Virus record (IMG/VR): IMGVR_UViG_2526164669_000023
Span: 1-49,435 of that record
From: a virus
Taxonomy: Duplodnaviria > Heunggongvirae > Uroviricota > Caudoviricetes
Length of the DNA: 49,435 nucleotides
Reading direction: 5' to 3' (one strand)
Part shown: piece after piece, positions 10,719 to 43,963 of the stretch
Position numbering within the stretch: the stretch's first letter is position 1
How the letters are laid out: each line of letters begins with the position of its first letter
Notes under the pieces: model-generated
Told to the model about the DNA's origin: nothing
The model's input: only the letters and a program-made list of their open reading frames with translations
Databases searched by the model: none
Program-made: the position numbers and the translations under genes

Positions 10719-10826
10719 TTTTTATGAGGAAATAATCGACGAATGAGGGCTAATGTCTGGTCACCCGGTTGACAATTACAAATATTTTATTGACGATGAA
10801 TGGAAAATGCGTGACGATTACAATAT

Positions 10827-11960
10827 ATGACTTGTCAAAGTATAATGAGAGATTGCATGAAGATTAACCATGAGGATTTAATTGATCTTATAAAGGCATC
10901 ACTGGATGCGAATTACAGCGAAGTTCGTAGTGTTAGTAATCGCATTGTTCGCGCAATTAGCGCTCAGGATGCTGACTTAGCAAAGCAAATTAAGTCTATC
11001 ATCCGTAAAAAAGGGGTACCATTACGTAGCTCTGGTTATACGGACAGTTTGCCCTTAGATCCGAAATCAAGGATGCCTTTAGTGGAAGAAGTCGAATGGC
11101 CTGCAACGCCTTTATTTCTTTCTGATGAATCACAGCATATTTTTCATGCTTTTATTCAGAATGTTATCCATCAGAATGAACTTATAGAGAATGGAATTCC
11201 AGGTAAATTGAATTTACTTCTTTCTGGTCCGCCAGGAACAGGTAAGACATTAGTCGCTGGTCATATCGCATCCAAATTAAACAAACCGCTCTATGTTGTT
11301 CGGCTTGACTCTGTTATTTCTTCTCTGTTAGGTGATACAGCGAAGAACCTAAGACAGATTTTTGACTTCGTCCCGACAAAAGATGGTGTGTTATTTCTTG
11401 ATGAAGTAGATGCGGTTGCTAAGCTTCGTGATGACAATCAGGAAGTTGGAGAGTTAAAAAGAGTTGTTAACACATTAATCCAAGGACTGGATTCTCTTGA
11501 TGATTCTGCTATTGTCATTGCTGCAACTAATCATTCGAAGCTATTGGATCCAGCAATTTGGAGACGTTTCCCATATAAAATTAGCTTTGGTTTGCCTGGA
11601 CAAGATGTCAGATGTGCTATGTGGGAACATTTTTTATTTAGAGATGATACGGATTCATTTCTAAGTAAAATGTTATCTATCATATCAACTGGGCTAACAG
11701 GTGCTGATATTGAAAATATCAGTTTATCTGCAAGAAGGCATAGTGTTTTATCTGGCAATGGACTGGATATACCATCTGTTGTTTATGCTATATTGAATAG
11801 CGTTGCAGATAGTACAGCAATTCCTTTTGGTAAGGATATAAATTCGAGTGTTAAGAAAAATTTAGCGAAGGAATTATCTAAGTTTAAATTATCACAGGCA
11901 GATATCGGTAGACTTTTAAATGTGAGCAGGCAAACTATATCAGGTTATTTCAAGGAATAA
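10827..11960 (+). CDS. Classical-clade AAA+ ATPase with C-terminal HTH (candidate defense ATPase, IetA-like)
   Basis: Walker A LLLSGPPGTGKT, Walker B VLFLDEVDA, sensor-1 IAATN, Arg-finger region LDPAIWRRFPY; C-terminal XRE-like HTH LSQADIGRLLNVSRQTISGYF. AT-rich relative to flanks. Alternative start at Met11 (10857). Confidence 0.75.
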   Translation: MTCQSIMRDCMKINHEDLIDLIKASLDANYSEVRSVSNRIVRAISAQDADLAKQIKSIIRKKGVPLRSSGYTDSLPLDPKSRMPLVEEVEWPATPLFLSDESQHIFHAFIQNVIHQNELIENGIPGKLNLLLSGPPGTGKTLVAGHIASKLNKPLYVVRLDSVISSLLGDTAKNLRQIFDFVPTKDGVLFLDEVDAVAKLRDDNQEVGELKRVVNTLIQGLDSLDDSAIVIAATNHSKLLDPAIWRRFPYKISFGLPGQDVRCAMWEHFLFRDDTDSFLSKMLSIISTGLTGADIENISLSARRHSVLSGNGLDIPSVVYAILNSVADSTAIPFGKDINSSVKKNLAKELSKFKLSQADIGRLLNVSRQTISGYFKE

Positions 11961-11962
11961 TT

Positions 11963-12538
11963 ATGGTCAGTGAAAATAAAGCTAAAATTTTAAACCCAAT
12001 AATTACTTTATTGAAGCCACCAACGCCAGAGGCGATTCCTGTTGGAGGGAAAAGTCGTAAAAATATTGTTGATTCACGGTTGAAACAACAGCGTGAAGTT
12101 TTATCCTCAGAGATAGATTCCATATTAAGAACAGAAGGTGAAATAGTTAAACATCGTGGTAAGTATCATATAGTAACAAGTATGTTTGAGGACTCATATG
12201 CACCATCGTTTATACCAGATTCATTATTCTGTCCCAGTGTTGAATGTAAGATAGTTGCACCAGCATACAATGGATATTTAATTGAGGTCAATAGCAATGC
12301 TTTATTGAAGTTGAAAAATAAAATTAATAATGCAAAAGCTATTACTGATCTTGTGGATATTTCAAGGGTTAGAAGTGTTAGTCTTTTTGATTCATCTTGT
12401 ACATTGCGAAATAGTAGCCTTGATTCGCTCTGGAATACAGTTAAGGCTTTGAATACATTTCAATTTAATATGTGGCTTATGCCTTTTTTTGATGAGCTTT
12501 CTAGAGAGTCTGTAGTTTCAACTTTTTTAAATTTTTAA
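11963..12538 (+). CDS. Hypothetical protein, middle gene of ATPase/protease cassette
   Basis: 191-aa ORF starting 3 nt after the ATPase stop; AT-rich; no motif I recognise. Confidence 0.55.
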   Translation: MVSENKAKILNPIITLLKPPTPEAIPVGGKSRKNIVDSRLKQQREVLSSEIDSILRTEGEIVKHRGKYHIVTSMFEDSYAPSFIPDSLFCPSVECKIVAPAYNGYLIEVNSNALLKLKNKINNAKAITDLVDISRVRSVSLFDSSCTLRNSSLDSLWNTVKALNTFQFNMWLMPFFDELSRESVVSTFLNF

Positions 12539-12741
12539 ATGATGGTATCATCGCTTTTGGTTATTCAGATTTTGACATAAAAACTATAAATCAAGATGCT
12601 GCTGTTGGCGGGGATAATATAGTCATAGTTCCACCGTTACTTATTGAAGCGATAAAAAAGTATCGTAAATCAGGTCAAGCATCCGTTACCGTCACTGTAG
12701 AGACTAAAGATAGTTTAAACAGGATACTGAATAGCAGTGCT

Positions 12742-14229
12742 GTGTATCGTATAGATCCTGTATCACCGCTAAACGTAACAGATACTCCTCCTGGTAATGG
12801 GGCTGAACCTGTTCCACCAATATTGGGGGATAAGAAAATGCCAACTGTAGTTGTAATTGATGGTGGGTGTAATGCGAAATCATATTCAAATTTAAATATA
12901 TATAAACTAAATCCGCTAATTCCAGATCATGATGCAGATTGTAAACATGGTAATAAAGTTGTATCGTTGTTATGTCACGGTTATGCTTGGAATAATAATT
13001 TAAACTTACCTAAATTGCAATGTAGCTATATAAGTGCACAGGCTATTGCGAAAAGGGGAGTGTTGAAACAACCAACTCCGGATCAATTTTTAAATTATTT
13101 AAGAATGGTTGCTGACAAAACGTCATCTATCGCCAAGGTCTGGAATCTTTCGTTTAATGAAGACGCTCCTCATTATAACTGTAATGAGATAAGTTATCTG
13201 GGACATAAAATCAGTTTGTTGGCTCGAGAATTTGGTATTCTGCCTGTAATATCTATCGGTAATGTTTCAAAGAACGAAAAACAAAAAAATCTTTGTCCGC
13301 CCGCAGATTGTGAGTCAGGAATTACAGTAAGTGGGAGAACGGCCAATCATGAAGGAATGCCTTCAGATGGCTGTCCTTTAAGTCGGAAAGGCCCTGCTCC
13401 TGCAGGAATGAAAAAACCTGAGTTATCATGGTTTTCTCGAGTTAGGGTGATAGGTGGAACAGTAGATATCGGAACAAGTTTTAGTGCTCCATTAGTTTCA
13501 TCTATTGCTGCTCATACCTTTTCGAATATTAAAAATGCCACTCCTGATTTGGTTAGGGCATTATTGATTAACAGGAGTGAGTTGCTTTCTCATGATGATG
13601 CATTAGGATGGGGGACTCCTTGGGATGGCGATTTACTGCCATGGTATTGTAAAGATGGCAGTGTCACATTAACGTGGATATCTAAGTTAAAGGCTGGGGC
13701 TGCTTATTATTGGAACGATCTTCCATTACCTCCAGAGATGTTAGTTAATGGTAAATTAGTTGGTGAGATATCTCTGACAGCTATACTAAAACCTAAGGTT
13801 TCTGAGTTCGGAAGTGAGAACTATTTTTCGACAAGGCTCCAATGTTCGTTACAGGCAATAAAAGAAATTAACGGAACGCTAAAAACAGAAAGCCTTCTTG
13901 GGTCAATGAAAGAATCTTCTGTTGATGAGCGTAAAGCTAGAAATGAACTTTCTAAATGGAGCCCTATTCGCCATCATGCAGAGTCGTTTAAGAGAAAAGA
14001 TATAACAGGGTGTAAAATTCGGCTTTATGCTAGGATATATGCTAGAGATTTGTATCAGTATGGGTTAAATAACCAACGGGAGCTTGAAGAGCAAGAGGTT
14101 TCCTTTGTTTTAACTTTTAAAAGTGTATCAGGATCGTCCTCAATATATACATCAATGGTTCAGCAACTTGGTGTTTATGTTGAAAGTGCTGTTATAGATA
14201 ATCACATTAACATAGATGTTAATAAGTGA
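12742..14229 (+). CDS. Subtilisin-like serine protease (peptidase S8) with C-terminal extension (IetS-like)
   Basis: D-H-S triad motifs in canonical order: VVVIDGGC, CKHGNKVV, GTSFSAPLVSSIAA; about 250 extra C-terminal residues. Track start is GTG; an ATG (MPTVVVIDGG) lies 32 codons downstream; in-frame stop at 12616. Confidence 0.75.
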   Translation: MYRIDPVSPLNVTDTPPGNGAEPVPPILGDKKMPTVVVIDGGCNAKSYSNLNIYKLNPLIPDHDADCKHGNKVVSLLCHGYAWNNNLNLPKLQCSYISAQAIAKRGVLKQPTPDQFLNYLRMVADKTSSIAKVWNLSFNEDAPHYNCNEISYLGHKISLLAREFGILPVISIGNVSKNEKQKNLCPPADCESGITVSGRTANHEGMPSDGCPLSRKGPAPAGMKKPELSWFSRVRVIGGTVDIGTSFSAPLVSSIAAHTFSNIKNATPDLVRALLINRSELLSHDDALGWGTPWDGDLLPWYCKDGSVTLTWISKLKAGAAYYWNDLPLPPEMLVNGKLVGEISLTAILKPKVSEFGSENYFSTRLQCSLQAIKEINGTLKTESLLGSMKESSVDERKARNELSKWSPIRHHAESFKRKDITGCKIRLYARIYARDLYQYGLNNQRELEEQEVSFVLTFKSVSGSSSIYTSMVQQLGVYVESAVIDNHINIDVNK

Positions 14230-14268
14230 TGTACAGAAACTGATTTATTATTATGTTAATTAATGTAT

Positions 14269-14295
14269 TACCCGCTTCGGCGGGTTTTTGTTTTT
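14269..14295 (+). terminator. Rho-independent terminator after the cargo cassette
   Basis: CCCGC-TTCG-GCGGG hairpin followed by TTTTTGTTTTT. Confidence 0.7.
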
Positions 14296-14419
14296 ATTTT
14301 CAATACGTTTGAAGTTATGGACGATGCCGGAATAGAATCAAAAATACTTAAGTAGCGCGCAGGGAGAAGAGTGATGGACCCCGAAGGGGAAGAGCTATTT
14401 ATCTGGAAGGATTCTGAAG

Positions 14420-14593
14420 ATGAAAATCGAAGAATTGCGTGAAATTTTTAGTGAAAATGGCCTCTATGCTGTGCGCGTTGAGAATGGGAAAGTTGTCTAC
14501 ACAACGTTAATCCCTGATGATCATGTAATTTTATCTATCGAGGCATTCATTGAATACCTTGAAAGGCTCGGTTTCAAGGTGATTCGGGAATGA
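14420..14593 (+). CDS. Small hypothetical ORF (57 aa)
   Basis: Hand-read ORF MKIEELREIFSENGLYAVRVENGKVVYTTLIPDDHV... in the gap between the cassette terminator and the next gene; below track cutoff. Confidence 0.3.
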   Translation: MKIEELREIFSENGLYAVRVENGKVVYTTLIPDDHVILSIEAFIEYLERLGFKVIRE

Positions 14594-17395: not shown

Positions 17396-17471
17396 GGCCC
17401 TTTAGCTCAGTGGTGAGAGCGAGCGACTCATAATCGCCTGGTCGCTGGTTCAAATCCAGCAAGGGCCACCA
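17396..17471 (+). tRNA. tRNA with CAU anticodon (Ile2/Met type, ileZ-like)
   Basis: 76 nt; acceptor GGCCCTT/AAGGGCC, anticodon loop CTCATAA, T-arm GCTGG-TTCAAAT-CCAGC, 3' CCA. Confidence 0.8.
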
Positions 17472-17473
17472 TT

Positions 17474-17550
17474 CCGCCACTAGCTCATCGGGATAGAGCA
17501 TCAACCTTCTAAGTTGATTGTGCGAGGTTCGAGTCCTCGGTGGCGGACCA
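17474..17550 (+). tRNA. tRNA-Arg (anticodon UCU)
   Basis: 77 nt; acceptor CCGCCAC/GTGGCGG, anticodon loop CTTCTAA, T-arm CGAGG-TTCGAGT-CCTCG, 3' CCA. Confidence 0.8.
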
Positions 17551-18034: not shown

Positions 18035-19600
18035 ATGTCCAAAAAGAGAAAATCCAGGAGCACTATGGAAACTTGTTTTAAGATCCTTCAGCTCAAGTTC
18101 GATAAGAAGCTGACTAACCGTTGTATCGGACTGACGTTACACATCAGCGCCTCAACCGTTTTTGAGGTTCTTGCCCGCTTCAAAGCCTCTTCTCTGTCAT
18201 GGCCATTACCTGCTGATATATCCCATGACACGCTGGAGAAACTCATTTTCCCGCCCAAAGACACCTCTGCGTCAGAGCTTGTTATGCCTGACATGCTGTA
18301 CTTCGATACGGAAATGAGAAAACCTGGCGTGACGCGCCAACTGTTGTGGATGGAATACAAGGCACAGGCGGGTGACAAAGCGATGGGATACTCACACTTC
18401 TGCCGTTGCTACCGGAAGTGGAAAAAAACGCGACGCCTCTCCATGCGACAGGAGCATCGTGCTGGCGAAAAGCTCTTTATCGACTTCTGTGGTCCTACGC
18501 TTCCTGTTATTAATCCGGACACCGGAGAGATACGCCGCGTGGCAATCTTCGTGGCTGTAATGGGGGCGTCCAACTATACCTATGTTGAAGCGTGCGAAGG
18601 TCAGGACATGATGTCATGGTTAAATGCCCACAGCCGTTGCCTGACCTTCCTGGGCGGCGTACCGAAGCTGCTCATCCCCGATAACCTCAGAAGCGCAGTG
18701 AAAAAAGCCGATCGCTATGAGCCTGTCATCAACGACAGTTATCAGGCGCTGGCTGAGCACTATGGCACGGTTATTATCCCGGCCCGCCCGCGCAAACCTA
18801 AAGATAAACCAAAAGCAGAAAACGGCGTCCTCATCGTCGAGCGATGGCTTCTTGCCCGCATCCGTAATGAAACCTTCCACACGCTCAGGGCGCTGAATGC
18901 ACGCCTTCGGGAGTTGCTGACGGACATGAATAACCGACCAATGAAGGGATACGGTAATCAAACCCGCGCAGAACGCTTCCGCATGCTGGATGCACCAGCA
19001 CTCTCTCCGCTGCCTCTGGAGCCTTATGAATACACGGAATACAAAGCCGTGAAGGTTGGCCCTGACTACCACGTTGAATATGCCCGTCACTGGTACTCCG
19101 TTCCACACGAACTGGTCGGTCAGCGTCTGTCACTGAAGGTGGGGCAGTCGGTGGTACAGCTCTGGCACAAGGGGCAGTGTGTGGCGCAACATCCGCGCAG
19201 CACACATGAATATAAACACACAACCAATCCGCTTCACATGCCAGAACGCCACCGGCGGCATGGGACATGGACACCGGAACGCCTTATCGAGCAGGGAAAC
19301 CGTACAGGTCCGTCCACAGGCCGGGTGGTTGAATCCATGCTGAAAGCCAAACCCCATCCGGAGCTGGCTTACCGTGCAGTCCTGGGTCTGCTGGCACTTC
19401 AGAAAAAATACGGCCCGGAACGGCTGGAAAAGGCCTGTTACGTTGCCCTGCACTATAACGCCCCGGACAGACGCTTTATCGACAATCTGCTGCGTCATCA
19501 TCGGGATAACGTTGAGCTTCCGTTATCCCGCCAGGGCGAACAACATCCGGCATATGCTTCAGAGCATGAAAACCTGCGTGGTCCTGGCTACTACCACTGA
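18035..19600 (+). CDS. istA: IS21-family transposase IstA
   Basis: 521 aa from MSKKRKSRSTMETCF; N-terminal HTH and DDE-type core; followed by an IstB ATPase. Confidence 0.8.
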   Translation: MSKKRKSRSTMETCFKILQLKFDKKLTNRCIGLTLHISASTVFEVLARFKASSLSWPLPADISHDTLEKLIFPPKDTSASELVMPDMLYFDTEMRKPGVTRQLLWMEYKAQAGDKAMGYSHFCRCYRKWKKTRRLSMRQEHRAGEKLFIDFCGPTLPVINPDTGEIRRVAIFVAVMGASNYTYVEACEGQDMMSWLNAHSRCLTFLGGVPKLLIPDNLRSAVKKADRYEPVINDSYQALAEHYGTVIIPARPRKPKDKPKAENGVLIVERWLLARIRNETFHTLRALNARLRELLTDMNNRPMKGYGNQTRAERFRMLDAPALSPLPLEPYEYTEYKAVKVGPDYHVEYARHWYSVPHELVGQRLSLKVGQSVVQLWHKGQCVAQHPRSTHEYKHTTNPLHMPERHRRHGTWTPERLIEQGNRTGPSTGRVVESMLKAKPHPELAYRAVLGLLALQKKYGPERLEKACYVALHYNAPDRRFIDNLLRHHRDNVELPLSRQGEQHPAYASEHENLRGPGYYH

Positions 19601-19616
19601 CAGAAGGAACAACCGT

Positions 19617-20372
19617 ATGAGTGATAATCTGTTAAACAAACTGACCCAACTGAAACTCCCGGCGATGGCCGGGAGCCTGATACGGCAACGGGAAACGCCT
19701 CAGACTTACGACGAACTGTCGTTCGAGGAAAGGCTGACACTGCTGGTTGATGACGAGCTTCTGAGCAGAGAAAACAGTCGTGTGGCACGGTTGAGAAAAA
19801 ATGCCTGCCTGAAATATCAGGCAACACCGGAAGGGCTGCGTTATCCGGCCTCAAGAGGTCTGCGGGCTGAACAGATGAGGGAACTGCTGAACGGCCACTA
19901 CATAATCCACAGGAAAAACCTACTGATAACCGGTCCGACAGGATGCGGTAAGAGCTGGATAGCCAATGCGCTGGGCGAACAGGCATGTCGACAGAAATAC
20001 AGCGTCCGGTACTGTAGAACCGGGCGATTACTGGAACAGTTGGCTCAGGGACGTGTTGATGGCAGTTGGCTGAAATATCTGAAACAGTTGCAAAAAATAC
20101 AGGTTCTAATCCTGGACGATCTGGGGCTGGAACAGTTAAGTAACGCCCAGTGTAATGACCTTCTGGAGATCACAGAGGATCGTTACGGACAAAGCAGCAC
20201 GATAGTGGTAAGCCAGTTCCCGGTAGATAAATGGCATGGTCTGATGGAGAACCCAACAACAGCAGATGCCATCCTGGACAGACTGGTACATAACTCACAC
20301 AGAGTGGTCCTTCAGGGAGAGTCCCTGAGGAAAAATCCCCCGACAGTGGAAAGCAGCGAAAAAACGAGTTAA
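19617..20372 (+). CDS. istB: IS21-family helper ATPase IstB
   Basis: 251 aa from MSDNLLNKLTQLKLPAMAG; Walker A GPTGCGKSWIANAL, Walker B VLILDDLG. Confidence 0.8.
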   Translation: MSDNLLNKLTQLKLPAMAGSLIRQRETPQTYDELSFEERLTLLVDDELLSRENSRVARLRKNACLKYQATPEGLRYPASRGLRAEQMRELLNGHYIIHRKNLLITGPTGCGKSWIANALGEQACRQKYSVRYCRTGRLLEQLAQGRVDGSWLKYLKQLQKIQVLILDDLGLEQLSNAQCNDLLEITEDRYGQSSTIVVSQFPVDKWHGLMENPTTADAILDRLVHNSHRVVLQGESLRKNPPTVESSEKTS

Positions 20373-21147
20373 AAAGCGGTAGAAAAAGTTAAGTTCCCGG
20401 TTGATCGAATGGATGCGAATCGCTGATCGAACTTCGATGCCAATCCGTGATCGAATAGAGCGGAATACGCAAATAACGTAAATTGTATGCGTATGATACA
20501 TATTTATACATATATTTAAATATGAAAACTAATTAGTTTTTGATGTCATATAAATTATCGGTAATATTACTCCCGACCCGAAAGGCAGCAAGTTTCTGTT
20601 CACAGGGGTGTTACCCGCTGTCTTGCGGGTCATTGCAGGCATCCGTTTAATCATAATGAAGGGCTGTTATCAGTATCAGTGTCATTATTGTGGTTACGGA
20701 GGCCTGCTCTATGTGCAGGTATCGTATAGTGGTTATTACATCAGCCTTAGGTTGGTAATGCCGGTTCGATTCCTGTTCTCCGCAACTTCATTGTTTTTTG
20801 GACAAGTTTTTACAGCACTGGCGGTTTTCGTGAGGAACAGATCTCTTTAATACCTTTATCGTCCCTCATTCTGTAATGGAGATCGGTTACAGACTCAGTG
20901 CTGTATTTTTTATGACACAGAAATGGCGCATTGCCCACGAAAGGAAGCAGGATTTAGCGTGGAGTAACCAGTGATGCGCCATCTCTGTGTCGGAAAACAT
21001 GAATTGGGGCGTTCCTCAGTGCGAGGGTGGTTTATAGAGTCGGTTTAGCGGGAAACCACAGTATCCACGTAAAGTGGAATACTTCGGGAGGCACCCGATG
21101 CCCCAAACCCAATAATCATTATAATATTGTGTCCTTTTATCGTTTTA

Positions 21148-22974: not shown

Positions 22975-23766
22975 ATGAGCGAGAAATTGAAGATCGTCTA
23001 TCGCCCGTTACAAGAACTGTCTCCGTATGCACACAATGCCAGGACACACAGCCCTGAGCAGGTGGCACAACTGGTAGAAAGCATTAAGCAATTCGGCTGG
23101 ACTAATCCAGTGCTGATTGATGAAAAGGGCGAAATTATTGCTGGTCACGGTCGCGTTATGGCGGCTGAGGCGCTCAAAATGGATTCGGTTCCGGTTATTG
23201 TTCTGTCTGGTCTGACGGATGATCAGAAAAAGGCGTACCGCCTGGCAGATAATCGCCTGCCGATGAATGCTGGCTGGGATGAAGATCTGTTACGGATGGA
23301 GCTGTCGGACCTAATCAATGCTGATTTTGATATCTCCCTGACAGGATGCAGCCCGACAGAAATTGATGAACTGTTGACGGATGTTTTGCCCGGTACAGGA
23401 AATGAGGAGGAACCGTACACGACGAAAATTGATACGCCTGTTTATGAGCCGTCGGGCGATAAACCAGATATCAGTGAACTGTACGACGATACGAAAACTC
23501 AGGAGTTGATCAGCCGGATACGTTCGGCGTCCCTTGATCCTGATATTGAGAAATTCCTCCTGTGTGCGGCAGAACGTCATACGGTGTTTAATTTCAGCAG
23601 AATTGCGGACTATTACGCTCACGCCCCCGCTGAAATTCAGTGCTTTTTCGAGGAATCGGCGCTGGTGATCATTGATTATCAGCAGGCTATTGAAAATGGA
23701 TTTGTCCGGATGACGCAGCGTATGGTGGAGATCATGCATGGCGGGGAGGAGGAGGAATATGCGTGA
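22975..23766 (+). CDS. ParB-like nuclease domain protein
   Basis: 263-aa ORF; N-terminal ParB/Srx-type motif (LIDEKGEIIAGHGRVMAA); acidic C-terminus; upstream of terminase genes. Confidence 0.6.
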   Translation: MSEKLKIVYRPLQELSPYAHNARTHSPEQVAQLVESIKQFGWTNPVLIDEKGEIIAGHGRVMAAEALKMDSVPVIVLSGLTDDQKKAYRLADNRLPMNAGWDEDLLRMELSDLINADFDISLTGCSPTEIDELLTDVLPGTGNEEEPYTTKIDTPVYEPSGDKPDISELYDDTKTQELISRIRSASLDPDIEKFLLCAAERHTVFNFSRIADYYAHAPAEIQCFFEESALVIIDYQQAIENGFVRMTQRMVEIMHGGEEEEYA

Positions 23767-24697
23767 TGATTTTTGCGCCTTTATTCTGACTCACGGGCGA
23801 CCGGACAAAGTTCTGACTTACCGGACGTTGCGTCGTGCTGGCTATACCGGGAAAATTTTTATCGTTGTTGATGATGAAGATAAAGATAATACACGGCATC
23901 ACTACATAGCTGAATTTAGTGAACAGGTGCTGGTGTTTTCCAAAGCCGATATCGCCAGTCGTTTTGACGAAGCCGATAATTTCGGTGACCGCCGATCAAT
24001 TTTTTACGCCCGTAATGCCTGTTTCGACCTGGCAAAACTGGTCGGGTGTAAATACTTCATTCAGCTCGATGATGATTATCACGAGTTCCAGTTTCGGGTG
24101 GATCGCAACTATGACCAGGCCTATTTCCCGATAAGAAAACTGGATGCGATCCTTTCTGAAATGCTGGCGTACTACGAATCAATACCTGCGCTTTCCATCG
24201 CTATGTCGCAGGGCGGAGATTTTCTTGGTGACAATGGCGGCCATGCTTCGTGGGTGAAACGCAAGGCAATGAACAGTTTTATCTGTTCCGTTGATCGACC
24301 GTTCTCATTCATGGGGCGCATTAACGAGGATGTGAATACGTATACGAATCTTGGTCGCTGTGGTGAATTGTTTATGACGATCGGTGCTGTCCAGTTAGGG
24401 CAGAAACAGACGCAGAAAAACAGCGGCGGAATGACCGAGCTGTATCTGGACTCCGGAACCTACGTTAAAAGTTTTTACTCCGTCATGTATGCGCCGTCGT
24501 GCGTAAAAATCTCACTGATGGGTGCCAGCCATAAACGCATTCACCATCAGGTCACCTGGAACAACGCTGCAGTAAAAATCCTTCACGAAAAATACAGGAA
24601 GAAGACACCCTGCATATCAATGGGGGTGACAAATGATTCCGTATTCGAAAGTAGAGTCTCTGGCAGCGTGCCGGATGACTGCACAACAAATCGCTGA
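23759..24697 (+). CDS. Hypothetical protein, possible GT-A-like glycosyltransferase
   Basis: 312 aa from MRDDFCAFILTHGRPDK; candidate DXD motif FIQLDDDY; RBS GGAGGAGGAA; overlaps the ParB-like gene by 8 nt. Function is a guess. Confidence 0.4.
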   Translation: MRDDFCAFILTHGRPDKVLTYRTLRRAGYTGKIFIVVDDEDKDNTRHHYIAEFSEQVLVFSKADIASRFDEADNFGDRRSIFYARNACFDLAKLVGCKYFIQLDDDYHEFQFRVDRNYDQAYFPIRKLDAILSEMLAYYESIPALSIAMSQGGDFLGDNGGHASWVKRKAMNSFICSVDRPFSFMGRINEDVNTYTNLGRCGELFMTIGAVQLGQKQTQKNSGGMTELYLDSGTYVKSFYSVMYAPSCVKISLMGASHKRIHHQVTWNNAAVKILHEKYRKKTPCISMGVTNDSVFESRVSGSVPDDCTTNR

Positions 24698-27311: not shown

Positions 27312-28751
27312 TTGATGGCAGAGATCGAGATTACTGGCGGCCTCGGTTCAGCACTGATGCGTATTCTTGAGGCTGAAGAAATTCAGCCGGGAACCGATAT
27401 TGGCTATGAATTGTGTAAGCTGCTGTGGCAATTCCATCCTCTGGGCGGAAAACTTGTCGAAAAACCCATACTGATGGCGATGTGTAAGCCGCGACAGTAT
27501 AACGTGGAGACAGATCCTGACGAGAGGGTTGTGCGGCGTTTCCAGGAGGTATGGGAACGTATGAGGGTCAACGAGAAGATAAAAAATCTGTTTTTTCTGT
27601 CTCGTTGCTACGGTGCTGCAGCGATCGGCGTGGGCACCGACAGTGTTTCATGTCGTGAGCCGCTTCCGACATTCGGGCTGACAGAAGAGGATGTGTATAT
27701 CAACGCGTGGGATCCGTTGAACGCTTCCGGTTCGATGGTGACTGACCAGAACCCAAACAGTCCGTTTTTCCAGGAAGCCAACAAAAGGCTGAAGATTGGC
27801 GGAAAAGACTGGCATCCGTCACGCACACTGAAAATCTTCAACGGCACACCGATTTATCTGGAGTTTCAGAGTTCATCGTTCGGATTCACCGGACGAAGTG
27901 TGTTTCAGCGCGTTCTTTATTCCCTGAAATCCTATATCAACACGATGGAGGCGAATGATCTCGTCAGTCAGAAGGCGGGCGTACTGGTAGCTAAAGTTGT
28001 GCAGTCCGGTTCGAAAATGGACGGGATCATGGCTGCTGCCACGGGGCGTAAAAGGGAAAACGTGAAAGCCGCCAAAAATAAAGGCGTGTTGAGTATTGGA
28101 AAAGACGAAGACGTAAGTTCACTGAACCTGCAAAACATCGACGGGGCGCTGAATACTGCCCGCGACAATATCATTGCTGATATTGCCGCCGGGAGTGACG
28201 TTCCGGCCATTATTATCAAGGAAGAAGCATTCAGTAACGGATTCGGTGAAGGTAAGGAGGACTCGAAAGCCATCAGCCAGTATATCGATGGTGTACGCCA
28301 GCAGATTGAACCTGTGATGGATTATTTCGAACGCCTGGTGCAGTACATCGCCTGGAACGAGGAATTTTATCAGTCGCTGAAAAATGATTACCCGGACATC
28401 ATAACCGAGGACTATAAAACCACGTTTTACCAGTGGCGGCGCGAGTTTACCGCGACGTGGCAGGAGCTGGTGGAGGAGTCGCCGGACAAACGCCGGGAAA
28501 GCGACAGTAAAGTGATTCAACAGGCGATAGCACTTTTCTCTGCCGTGTCGCTACAGGTTGATCCTGAAAACCGTGCCGCCGTCACTGAATGGCTGGCAAG
28601 CCTTGTTAATGCCACGCAGACCTATGGCGAAGCTCCACTCATCATTGATGTGGACGCCCTGGCGAATTATGAACCACCGAAGCAGGAGACGCCTGATGGC
28701 AATTTCCAGCCGGGCGGGGAGGAAGAAGAAACGGATCAGGACGCTGTATGA
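27312..28751 (+). CDS. Portal protein (putative)
   Basis: 479-aa ORF immediately after TerL; acidic C-terminus; assigned by position and size. Confidence 0.5.
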   Translation: MMAEIEITGGLGSALMRILEAEEIQPGTDIGYELCKLLWQFHPLGGKLVEKPILMAMCKPRQYNVETDPDERVVRRFQEVWERMRVNEKIKNLFFLSRCYGAAAIGVGTDSVSCREPLPTFGLTEEDVYINAWDPLNASGSMVTDQNPNSPFFQEANKRLKIGGKDWHPSRTLKIFNGTPIYLEFQSSSFGFTGRSVFQRVLYSLKSYINTMEANDLVSQKAGVLVAKVVQSGSKMDGIMAAATGRKRENVKAAKNKGVLSIGKDEDVSSLNLQNIDGALNTARDNIIADIAAGSDVPAIIIKEEAFSNGFGEGKEDSKAISQYIDGVRQQIEPVMDYFERLVQYIAWNEEFYQSLKNDYPDIITEDYKTTFYQWRREFTATWQELVEESPDKRRESDSKVIQQAIALFSAVSLQVDPENRAAVTEWLASLVNATQTYGEAPLIIDVDALANYEPPKQETPDGNFQPGGEEEETDQDAV

Positions 28752-42652: not shown

Positions 42653-42802
42653 ATCACAGTTTTATGATAAAACTTTTACCTTGGTTTGGAGTGCTGTAGA
42701 GAGATATTTTAGGGGGGGCGAGTAATTTTCTAAGCTGGAGCATATTGACATATATTATTTCGGATTTGCAAAATACATATTGTTACCATGGAGGAGACAA
42801 GC

Positions 42803-43963
42803 ATGGAAAATTTTGCAAATAAGTTAAAAATACACACAGAGCATGTTGCAAAAATGGGGGTGTTTTGTACAACTGAAGAAACGACAAAACAAGCACTCAT
42901 TATGCCATTACTAGATATTCTTGGTTTTACTCCGTATGATCCAAGAAAAGTCAAAGCTGAGTATAGTGCTGACTTCCCCGGGGTTAAGGCTAATGAACGG
43001 GTTGATTACGCTTTATTTTGTCATGATGTTCCTGTGATGTTCATTGAGGCGAAATCGTTTTCAGAACAAATTGATAATCACTGCCCACAGCTATCAAGAT
43101 ATTTTAATTCAACACCGGAAGTTACTATATCAGCCATTACAAATGGTGTTGAATGGCGTTTTTTTACGGATTTGAAACAAAAAAACATAATGGATTCAAC
43201 GCCGTTTTTAAAAATAAGAATGGATTCTCTAACTCACTCCGATATTACACAATTATTTCGTTTTCGTTATGATAAATTCAAACCAGAGGCTTTACGGACA
43301 CTGGCTGAAGAAAGTGTTTATTTGAATTCATTTACTAAAACAATCAGTTCTAGTCTTCGTGAAGTTGATCTGGAGTTTGTTCGATATGTTGCTAGTCGTT
43401 CAAATATTGAGAGACAACTTAATCAGAGATTTCTTGAGTTCGTGACTCCATTAGTTAAACAGGCCGTTGAGCGCGCTGTTAGCGCAATGGTGGTTTCCGG
43501 GCTATCTACACAACCGGTAGAGCAAACTAAAGAAAATGATGCAACGGATACACAAGTTAATAACGCCATTGTTGATGAAGAAAACCCCAACATAATAACC
43601 ACAGCCAAAGAATTGGAGCTATTTGAAAGGGTAAAACAAATCATACAAACAGAAGATAATATAGAATATAAAGATACTGAGTCATATTTTGGTGTACTAT
43701 TGAATGGTAAAACTAATAGATGGCTGTTAAGATTTTATGATAAAAAATCTTCATTTATAACTTTACCTATTTCGCTTAGTGAAGTTCAGTTGAATGAAAT
43801 AAGACGAGCTCGACTTGATACGGATGGTAAAAGGATACATATAACTAATCCGGAAGATATACTTCGCATATCTGGTTTGATTCTGGATTCATACGAGTAT
43901 GTTAAAAATGATGATAATTTCCGCCGAGGGTCCAGAGCGAGCAGTTTAGAAGAGGTTGAATAA
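42803..43963 (+). CDS. PD-(D/E)xK nuclease-fold protein, HsdR N-terminal-like domain (moron; candidate defense gene)
   Basis: About 386-aa ORF; motif ERVDYALFCHDVPVMFIEAKSF (D...E-A-K); AT-rich, own RBS GGAGGAG, promoter-like AT-rich upstream region with TTGACA at about 42745, own terminator. Confidence 0.65.
   Translation: MENFANKLKIHTEHVAKMGVFCTTEETTKQALIMPLLDILGFTPYDPRKVKAEYSADFPGVKANERVDYALFCHDVPVMFIEAKSFSEQIDNHCPQLSRYFNSTPEVTISAITNGVEWRFFTDLKQKNIMDSTPFLKIRMDSLTHSDITQLFRFRYDKFKPEALRTLAEESVYLNSFTKTISSSLREVDLEFVRYVASRSNIERQLNQRFLEFVTPLVKQAVERAVSAMVVSGLSTQPVEQTKENDATDTQVNNAIVDEENPNIITTAKELELFERVKQIIQTEDNIEYKDTESYFGVLLNGKTNRWLLRFYDKKSSFITLPISLSEVQLNEIRRARLDTDGKRIHITNPEDILRISGLILDSYEYVKNDDNFRRGSRASSLEEVE

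Follow-up and report, generated by a model that had tools for sequence, protein, structure and literature searches.

A putative ietA-ietS (IetAS) cassette in a Rac-like prophage of Escherichia coli DEC11B, its ietS frame split by one missing T

A subtilase-like open reading frame (ORF) in a prophage of Escherichia coli raises the question of whether it is a protease gene in its own right, with an unclear start and a regulatory gap in front of it, or a part of a larger gene. The window, i.e. the whole stretch of 49,435 nucleotides analysed here, is contig AIGW01000029.1 of E. coli DEC11B (GCA_000250135.2), and all features given below lie on its plus strand. Its ORF listing contains a 495-aa ORF with a GTG start (12742-14229), whose product is deposited as EHX04608.1 (ECDEC11B_1533), and before it a 191-aa ORF (11963-12538). 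A preliminary description took the former for a subtilase starting at either GTG 12742 or ATG 12838, with an in-frame stop at 12616, and saw between the two ORFs a 204-bp gap that could hold an internal promoter or a regulatory RNA. Here, I argue that 10857-14229 is very probably a known ietA-ietS (IetAS, 'Gao_Iet') cassette, in which ietS encodes one 755-aa protein and is split by the shortening of a run of six Ts (T6) to five (T5).

The supposed stop at 12616 does not exist: in the subtilase frame, codon 12616-12618 is AAT, and the nearest in-frame stop upstream is the TAG at 12502-12504. The stretch 12539-12741 is not intergenic, because the frame lacks a stop at 12616 and is open in translation from 12505. 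Upstream of 12742 it translates as ordinary protein (DGIIAFGYSDFDIKTINQDAAVGGDNIVIVPPLLIEAIKKYRKSGQASVTVTVETKDSLNRILNSSAVYR...), and between 12505 and 12742 it is devoid of any ATG, GTG or TTG. GTG 12742, with no Shine-Dalgarno sequence, and ATG 12838, with a weak Shine-Dalgarno-like GGGGGA 7 nt upstream, are the earliest canonical starts in this frame. The start was thus rightly described as problematic; the choice between the two codons, however, is irrelevant, as a 1-nt deletion at 12532-12536 cuts the gene. The 191-aa ORF, for its part, begins with the ATG at 11963, 2 nt past the ietA stop, and this start has AAGGA as its Shine-Dalgarno sequence.

The deletion emerges from comparison with a complete genome. 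Megablast of 10750-14350 (a 3601-base query) against 5426 complete E. coli genomes returned a full-length match, of 3602 bases, in one genome out of the 5426, that of OkiPb01675 (NZ_AP042478.1), and no more distant ietS is found by DNA beyond it in these complete genomes. The similarity is not confined to the cassette: the whole 49,435-base window aligns to positions 1643578-1693013 of NZ_AP042478.1, and among the 49,436 aligned positions there is no mismatch and a single gap. This lone difference falls at 12529-12539, where OkiPb01675 reads AAATTTTTTAAA and the window AAATTTTTAAA, namely T6 in the intact allele versus T5 (12532-12536) in the window, at the frameshift site A_AAT_TTT_TAA (12529-12538). 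An uninterrupted ietS frame is consequently absent from the window. Once the T is restored, the 191-aa ORF and the subtilase frame fuse (...STFLNF-LNDGIIAFG...) into a 755-aa protein, and in OkiPb01675 RefSeq annotates two genes only, one for an AAA family ATPase and one, a single CDS of 2268 nt, for an "S8 family serine peptidase" (WP_096150140.1, 755 aa).

Read in this way, the 191-aa ORF and the subtilase frame together form one ietS gene of 755 codons, starting at ATG 11963. Its 5' segment (11963-12538) comprises codons 1-191, which encode the first N-terminal subdomain and are identical to residues 1-191 of WP_096150140.1, and the premature TAA (12536-12538) produced by the frameshift; its 3' segment (12535-14229), in the -1 frame with respect to the former, comprises codons 192-755, identical to the same residues of the intact allele, and the stop. 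The 12742-14229 ORF has no start of its own and belongs to this 3' part, the back three-quarters of the gene. Both the ambiguous start and the false 204-bp gap arise because the T5 reading leaves ietS in two pieces, an ORF of 191 aa and a 3' frame that has no start.

Profile searches indicate to which family the reconstructed gene belongs. The PADLOC profile IetS (PDLC02197) matches the 755-aa protein at E 6e-66; taken separately, the 191-aa ORF matches profile positions 21-166 weakly, and the 3' frame positions ~200-749 at E 1e-60. A search of 5.8 billion proteins retrieved more than 100 homologues of 735-770 aa covering 98-100% of the 755 aa, and all 37 of those aligned (37/37) read through the junction and continue across the alleged gap, which encodes the conserved IetS residues 194-260. 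In this 37-sequence alignment D300, H329, N395/N399 and S506 are invariant, as are a CPPADCE motif and many N-terminal positions; conservation of the triad (D300/H329/S506), on which the subtilase assignment had been made to depend, is therefore upheld. Near-identical DNA was not found in phage records, where tblastn matches are to distant S8 proteins of 23-27% identity.

Directly upstream of the S8 gene, and co-oriented with it, lies ietA (10857-11960; an alternative ATG is present upstream, at 10827), the AAA+ ATPase that would be the antitoxin or regulator partner. Its product matches the PADLOC profile IetA (PDLC02196) at E 5e-100 over profile positions 5-369 of 374, and Pfam AAA at E 4e-29; on direct reading both Walker motifs are intact, A as GPPGTGKT and B as LFLDEVD. 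IetA belongs to the classic-clade AAA+ proteins, with PAN, FtsH and Cdc48 as kin at E ~1e-23, and RefSeq calls an identical gene in OkiPb01675 with a start equivalent to 10857. The two distant homologues checked, those of P. aeruginosa (in a prophage-like setting) and Mesorhizobium, are likewise single S8 genes immediately preceded by an AAA gene. As a side observation, the C-terminal tail of IetA (residues 352-376; window 11880-11957) matches HTH_3 weakly and below cut-off (E 0.004), which may hint at autoregulation of the cassette.

The best NCBIfam models for the two proteins are IteA_antiphage and IteS_antiphage, and they align end to end: IteA_antiphage scores 297.7 bits, below its equivalog cut-off of 510, and IteS_antiphage 178.5 bits (cut-off 900), residues 41-736 of the reconstructed protein being placed onto positions 32-731 of 747. 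With neither cut-off reached, the locus may be regarded as a putative divergent subtype of the IetAS family, and not as an equivalog of the seed subtype.

The protease proper stands much as first described. The stretch 12742-14229 does code for an S8 subtilase (Pfam PF00082, 53.5 bits; cut-off 21.8), with the triad in the order Asp-His-Ser (D300 at 12859-12861, H329 at 12946-12948, S506 at 13477-13479), the oxyanion Asn (N395, 13144-13146) and a subtilisin fold. The triad residues are numbers 40, 69 and 246 of the 495-aa ORF, in good agreement with the catalytic core previously placed at residues 35-245. Nor was a signal peptide overlooked: none is present, and IetS is cytoplasmic.

AlphaFold2, run on the alignment (pLDDT 83.5, pTM 0.87), returns an alpha/beta region at residues 1-193, a small beta-alpha-beta-alpha-beta module at residues 214-266 (12601-12759), just before the protease domain and possibly propeptide-like, a conserved Pro/Gly-rich linker at residues 267-294 (of low confidence in the model), the S8 catalytic domain at residues about 290-550 (12829-13611), which bears the triad and N395 and whose modelled core runs from about 295 to 550, and a C-terminal beta-jelly-roll domain, i.e. 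a beta-sandwich, at residues 556-745 (13627-14196). Prodomain-containing entries (pro-subtilisin E, PCSK9, EpiP and pro-kumamolisin) align 45-70 more residues than catalytic-only entries, and for this reason residues 214-290 would seem to occupy the position of a propeptide. The IetS-specific N-terminal region spans residues 1 to about 290; profile searches with it return no sequence relative in the PDB, even at E 10, and scattered chance matches only in Pfam. No solved structure of an IetS was retrieved, the only matches being remote subtilases at E ~4e-4.

The C-terminal half, for which a domain of roughly 250 residues had been proposed, possibly an effector, turns out to be different on both counts. 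The S8 fold extends ~40 residues beyond the catalytic Ser, leaving a separate domain of ~190-200 residues, and this directly follows the catalytic domain and superposes on the C-domains of the subtilases Tk-SP and KP-43. A profile search of this half in Pfam and NCBIfam yields IetS itself only; the domain has a plain jelly-roll fold with no enzyme match, and an effector enzyme was discarded as a candidate. Neither the jelly-roll nor the N-terminal region looks like an enzyme, and both would most likely provide docking or regulatory surfaces for IetA, for the trigger or for substrates.

Could 12742-14229 still be a stand-alone gene, i.e. a protease of 463-495 aa translated from GTG 12742 or ATG 12838, driven or regulated by an element in the gap, with the 191-aa ORF as a separate gene? 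Gene callers did give 191-aa and 495-aa proteins for DEC11B, and a start at ATG 12838, with GGGGGA 7 nt upstream, would retain D300; this reading is nonetheless very improbable. The frame across the gap is open and protein-like, the 191-aa ORF matches the N-terminus of IetS, the homologues are all single proteins of ~750 aa, and OkiPb01675, whose DNA differs by one additional T, has a single CDS here. As to the starts, GTG 12742 has no Shine-Dalgarno sequence, and M291, the residue encoded by ATG 12838, is not conserved, the consensus there being Leu. Finally, the gap shows neither promoter nor RNA signal: a promoter consensus scan is empty within 12539-12741 and at chance in the region (13 sites found versus 14.4 expected), Rfam at gathering thresholds has no match in 12000-14400, and the RNA of 12536-12615 folds no better than its shuffled versions (z = -0.09). 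The internal promoter and the regulatory RNA once envisaged in this coding stretch are accordingly rejected. The split IetAS cassette being retained, what has to be weighed is the nature of the T5 allele, which may be an assembly error, a mutation or a site of recoding.

Homopolymer undercalls are the classic leftover error of older drafts, and a single indel left per ~50 kb, and no substitution, is what drafts of the pyrosequencing era usually show. That the missing T is a homopolymer error of a 2012-era draft assembly is, by a modest degree, probable: the indel is located in a homopolymer, and the T5 allele is known from one assembly only, the exact intact 755-aa protein being on 50 contigs and the 191-aa product on AIGW01000029.1 alone. 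The 495-aa product occurs on AIGW01000029.1 and on two Logan contigs, neither of which confirms T5. The Logan contig from SRR29694602 was set aside as uninformative in this respect, since it begins downstream of the frameshift site. That of SRR096907 matches the window base for base over 4558 nt, except at two indels; its positions 2761-2800, corresponding to 12504-12541, have T6 at the run and a different, extra T 13 nt upstream (GTTTCTAAC) in this AT-rich stretch, so that the frame is broken there too, and the contig terminates in the T-tract of the terminator. Indel-only differences and an end in a T-tract look like pyrosequencing noise, assuming that platform. Against an assembly error, the other 317 homopolymer runs of at least 5 nt in the window (104 of them of at least 6 nt) agree perfectly with OkiPb01675, which bespeaks a draft accurate at homopolymers, and the sole discrepancy in 49.4 kb strikes the toxin gene; ietS holds 17 of the 318 runs and makes up ~5% of the length of the window. 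Toxin genes are commonly inactivated, and an ietA next to a dead toxin is a typical decay route of toxin-antitoxin and abortive-infection modules. A real and recent inactivation of the toxin gene, by which T5 would be genuine in DEC11B, ietS dead, and ietA left with an inactive toxin, thus has a chance only somewhat short of even. The SRR096907 frameshift 13 nt away would count as a second independent event if it comes from a different strain; on the other side, the same contig has T6 at the very run, and the lack of any substitution between the two prophages leaves very little time for real mutations. A quite different outcome would be that T5 is real and corrected in translation: -1 ribosomal frameshifting on the slippery heptamer A_AAU_UUU (X_XXY_YYZ; 12529-12535, read directly) before the UAA would make full-length IetS, as a small dose of wild-type toxin. 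A -1 slip at this point restores exactly the wild-type ...NFLNDG..., and A_AA.U_UU.U is one of the -1 slippery heptamers of the described type H_HH.U_UU.Y, which shift efficiently in E. coli if a stimulator is present (PMC4066793). The hallmarks of a programmed -1 frameshift are wanting, though: the frame is intact in every homologue and on all 50 contigs with the identical protein, no downstream stimulatory structure is found (fold z = -0.09), and unstimulated motifs shift at about background to a few tenths of a percent. With no downstream structure and no conserved frameshift, recoding is a curiosity with a very slim chance of being true; were T5 real and slippage to occur, the abortive-infection toxin would be 'dimmed' and not dead, a natural case in which correction during translation sets the amount of a defence toxin.

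Whatever the origin of T5, the split cassette belongs to a system that is already known and recognised by existing defence-system profiles. IetAS is introduced, in a passage of PMC13069673, as originally described on Agrobacterium pTiC58, a plasmid-stabilising pair of a serine protease toxin and an ATPase antitoxin; defence against phage depends on the protease activity, and constructs with a mutated ietA could not be made (PMC13069673). One IetAS from B. cereus works through abortive infection and turns toxic once the phage SPbeta protein YosG is expressed (10.1101/2022.08.27.505566), and in E. coli ietAS can be prophage-borne (10.1101/2022.08.21.504612). By analogy with this literature, the AAA+ ATPase IetA of the present locus would hold the protease toxin IetS in check, a phage protein or process would lift this control, and the proteolysis by freed IetS would then arrest or kill the infected cell.

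Along the same line, the locus resembles the IetAS of pTiC58 in that an AAA+ ATPase gene is followed 2 nt later by a gene for a cytoplasmic S8 protease of ~750 aa, in the full-length matches to the IetA and IetS profiles with triad and Walker motifs intact, and in its location on a mobile element, which is common for ietAS in E. coli. It differs in scoring below the NCBIfam cut-offs, in its rarity (1 of 5426 complete E. coli genomes) and in an ietS that is frameshifted in this assembly. The SNF2-helicase variant of the system, ietHAS (Liu-DS4), shares the same IetA/IetS core and likewise requires protease activity for defence (PMC13069673); unlike ietHAS, the locus has no helicase gene, the gene upstream of ietA being the prophage DnaC/IstB-like ydaV. 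Beyond the family, Tk-SP of Thermococcus kodakarensis (PDB 3afg, 9ues) and KP-43 (PDB 1wmd) are, like IetS, subtilases with a C-terminal beta-jelly-roll, the sequence identity in this domain being at most 12%. They are, however, secreted degradative enzymes made with a signal peptide and a cleavable propeptide, whereas IetS is cytoplasmic, has a 290-residue N-terminal region and, on analogy, would depend on its AAA+ partner.

The cassette is an insert that forms a low-GC island (31-40% GC versus ~50% in the flanks), with ydaV on one side and the DUF1367/DUF1364/DUF1133 genes on the other. The DEC11B prophage that hosts it is Rac-like, adjoins ttcA and carries intR, xisR, rcbA, ralR, recT, recE, racC, kilR, sieB, racR and ydaSTUV. 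It ends at an intrinsic terminator-like hairpin with a T-tract (14270-14295; ACCCGCTTCGGCGGGT then TTTTTGTTTTT). Just 3' of this terminator, a 57-aa ORF (~14420-14593) matches the Rem family (PF27490), and RefSeq treats this region in OkiPb01675 as an incomplete pseudogene.

Several other features of the prophage deserve mention in their own right. RalA, the sRNA antitoxin of the RalR type I toxin-antitoxin system, lies at 1557-1735 (Rfam RF02694, 225 bits). A prophage tRNA pair at 17396-17550 consists of a tRNA with a CAT anticodon (Met according to ARAGORN, Ile according to RefSeq) and Arg-TCT; a third, weak tRNA-like Rfam match at 20715-20784 (31.8 bits against a cut-off of 29) is not called by ARAGORN. 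Between the tRNA and lysis genes sits an IS21-like ISSso4 (istA/istB, ~18066-20373), as annotated by RefSeq in the identical sequence. Just upstream of the terminase genes, at 22975-24697, a ParB_N-domain protein is followed by a TET-associated glycosyltransferase (TAGT, PF20691, E 1e-32), and the pair may be a phage DNA-modification module. The gene at 27312-28751, which RefSeq names 'anti-CBASS protein Acb1 family protein', matches Pfam Phage_portal_3 at E 2e-14 and directly follows the terminase large subunit, and match and position together make it the probable portal gene. Amid baseplate and tail genes, the ORF at 42788-43963 codes for 391 aa that include the HSDR_N nuclease domain of type I restriction (E 6e-14); it may be another inserted accessory gene, possibly of defence.

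To sum up, what had been called as three genes, for an AAA ATPase, a hypothetical protein of 191 aa and a subtilase of 495 aa with an odd start, reduces to an ordinary IetAS cassette of two genes, and the supposed regulatory gap owes its appearance to a frameshift of one base. The locus alone raises no new question and is mostly a correction. It adds one rare E. coli subtype of IetAS, putative by sequence, and the domain map of IetS, i.e. an N-terminal region without detectable relatives, a module in propeptide position, the S8 core and a jelly-roll, could guide work on the mechanism of IetAS.
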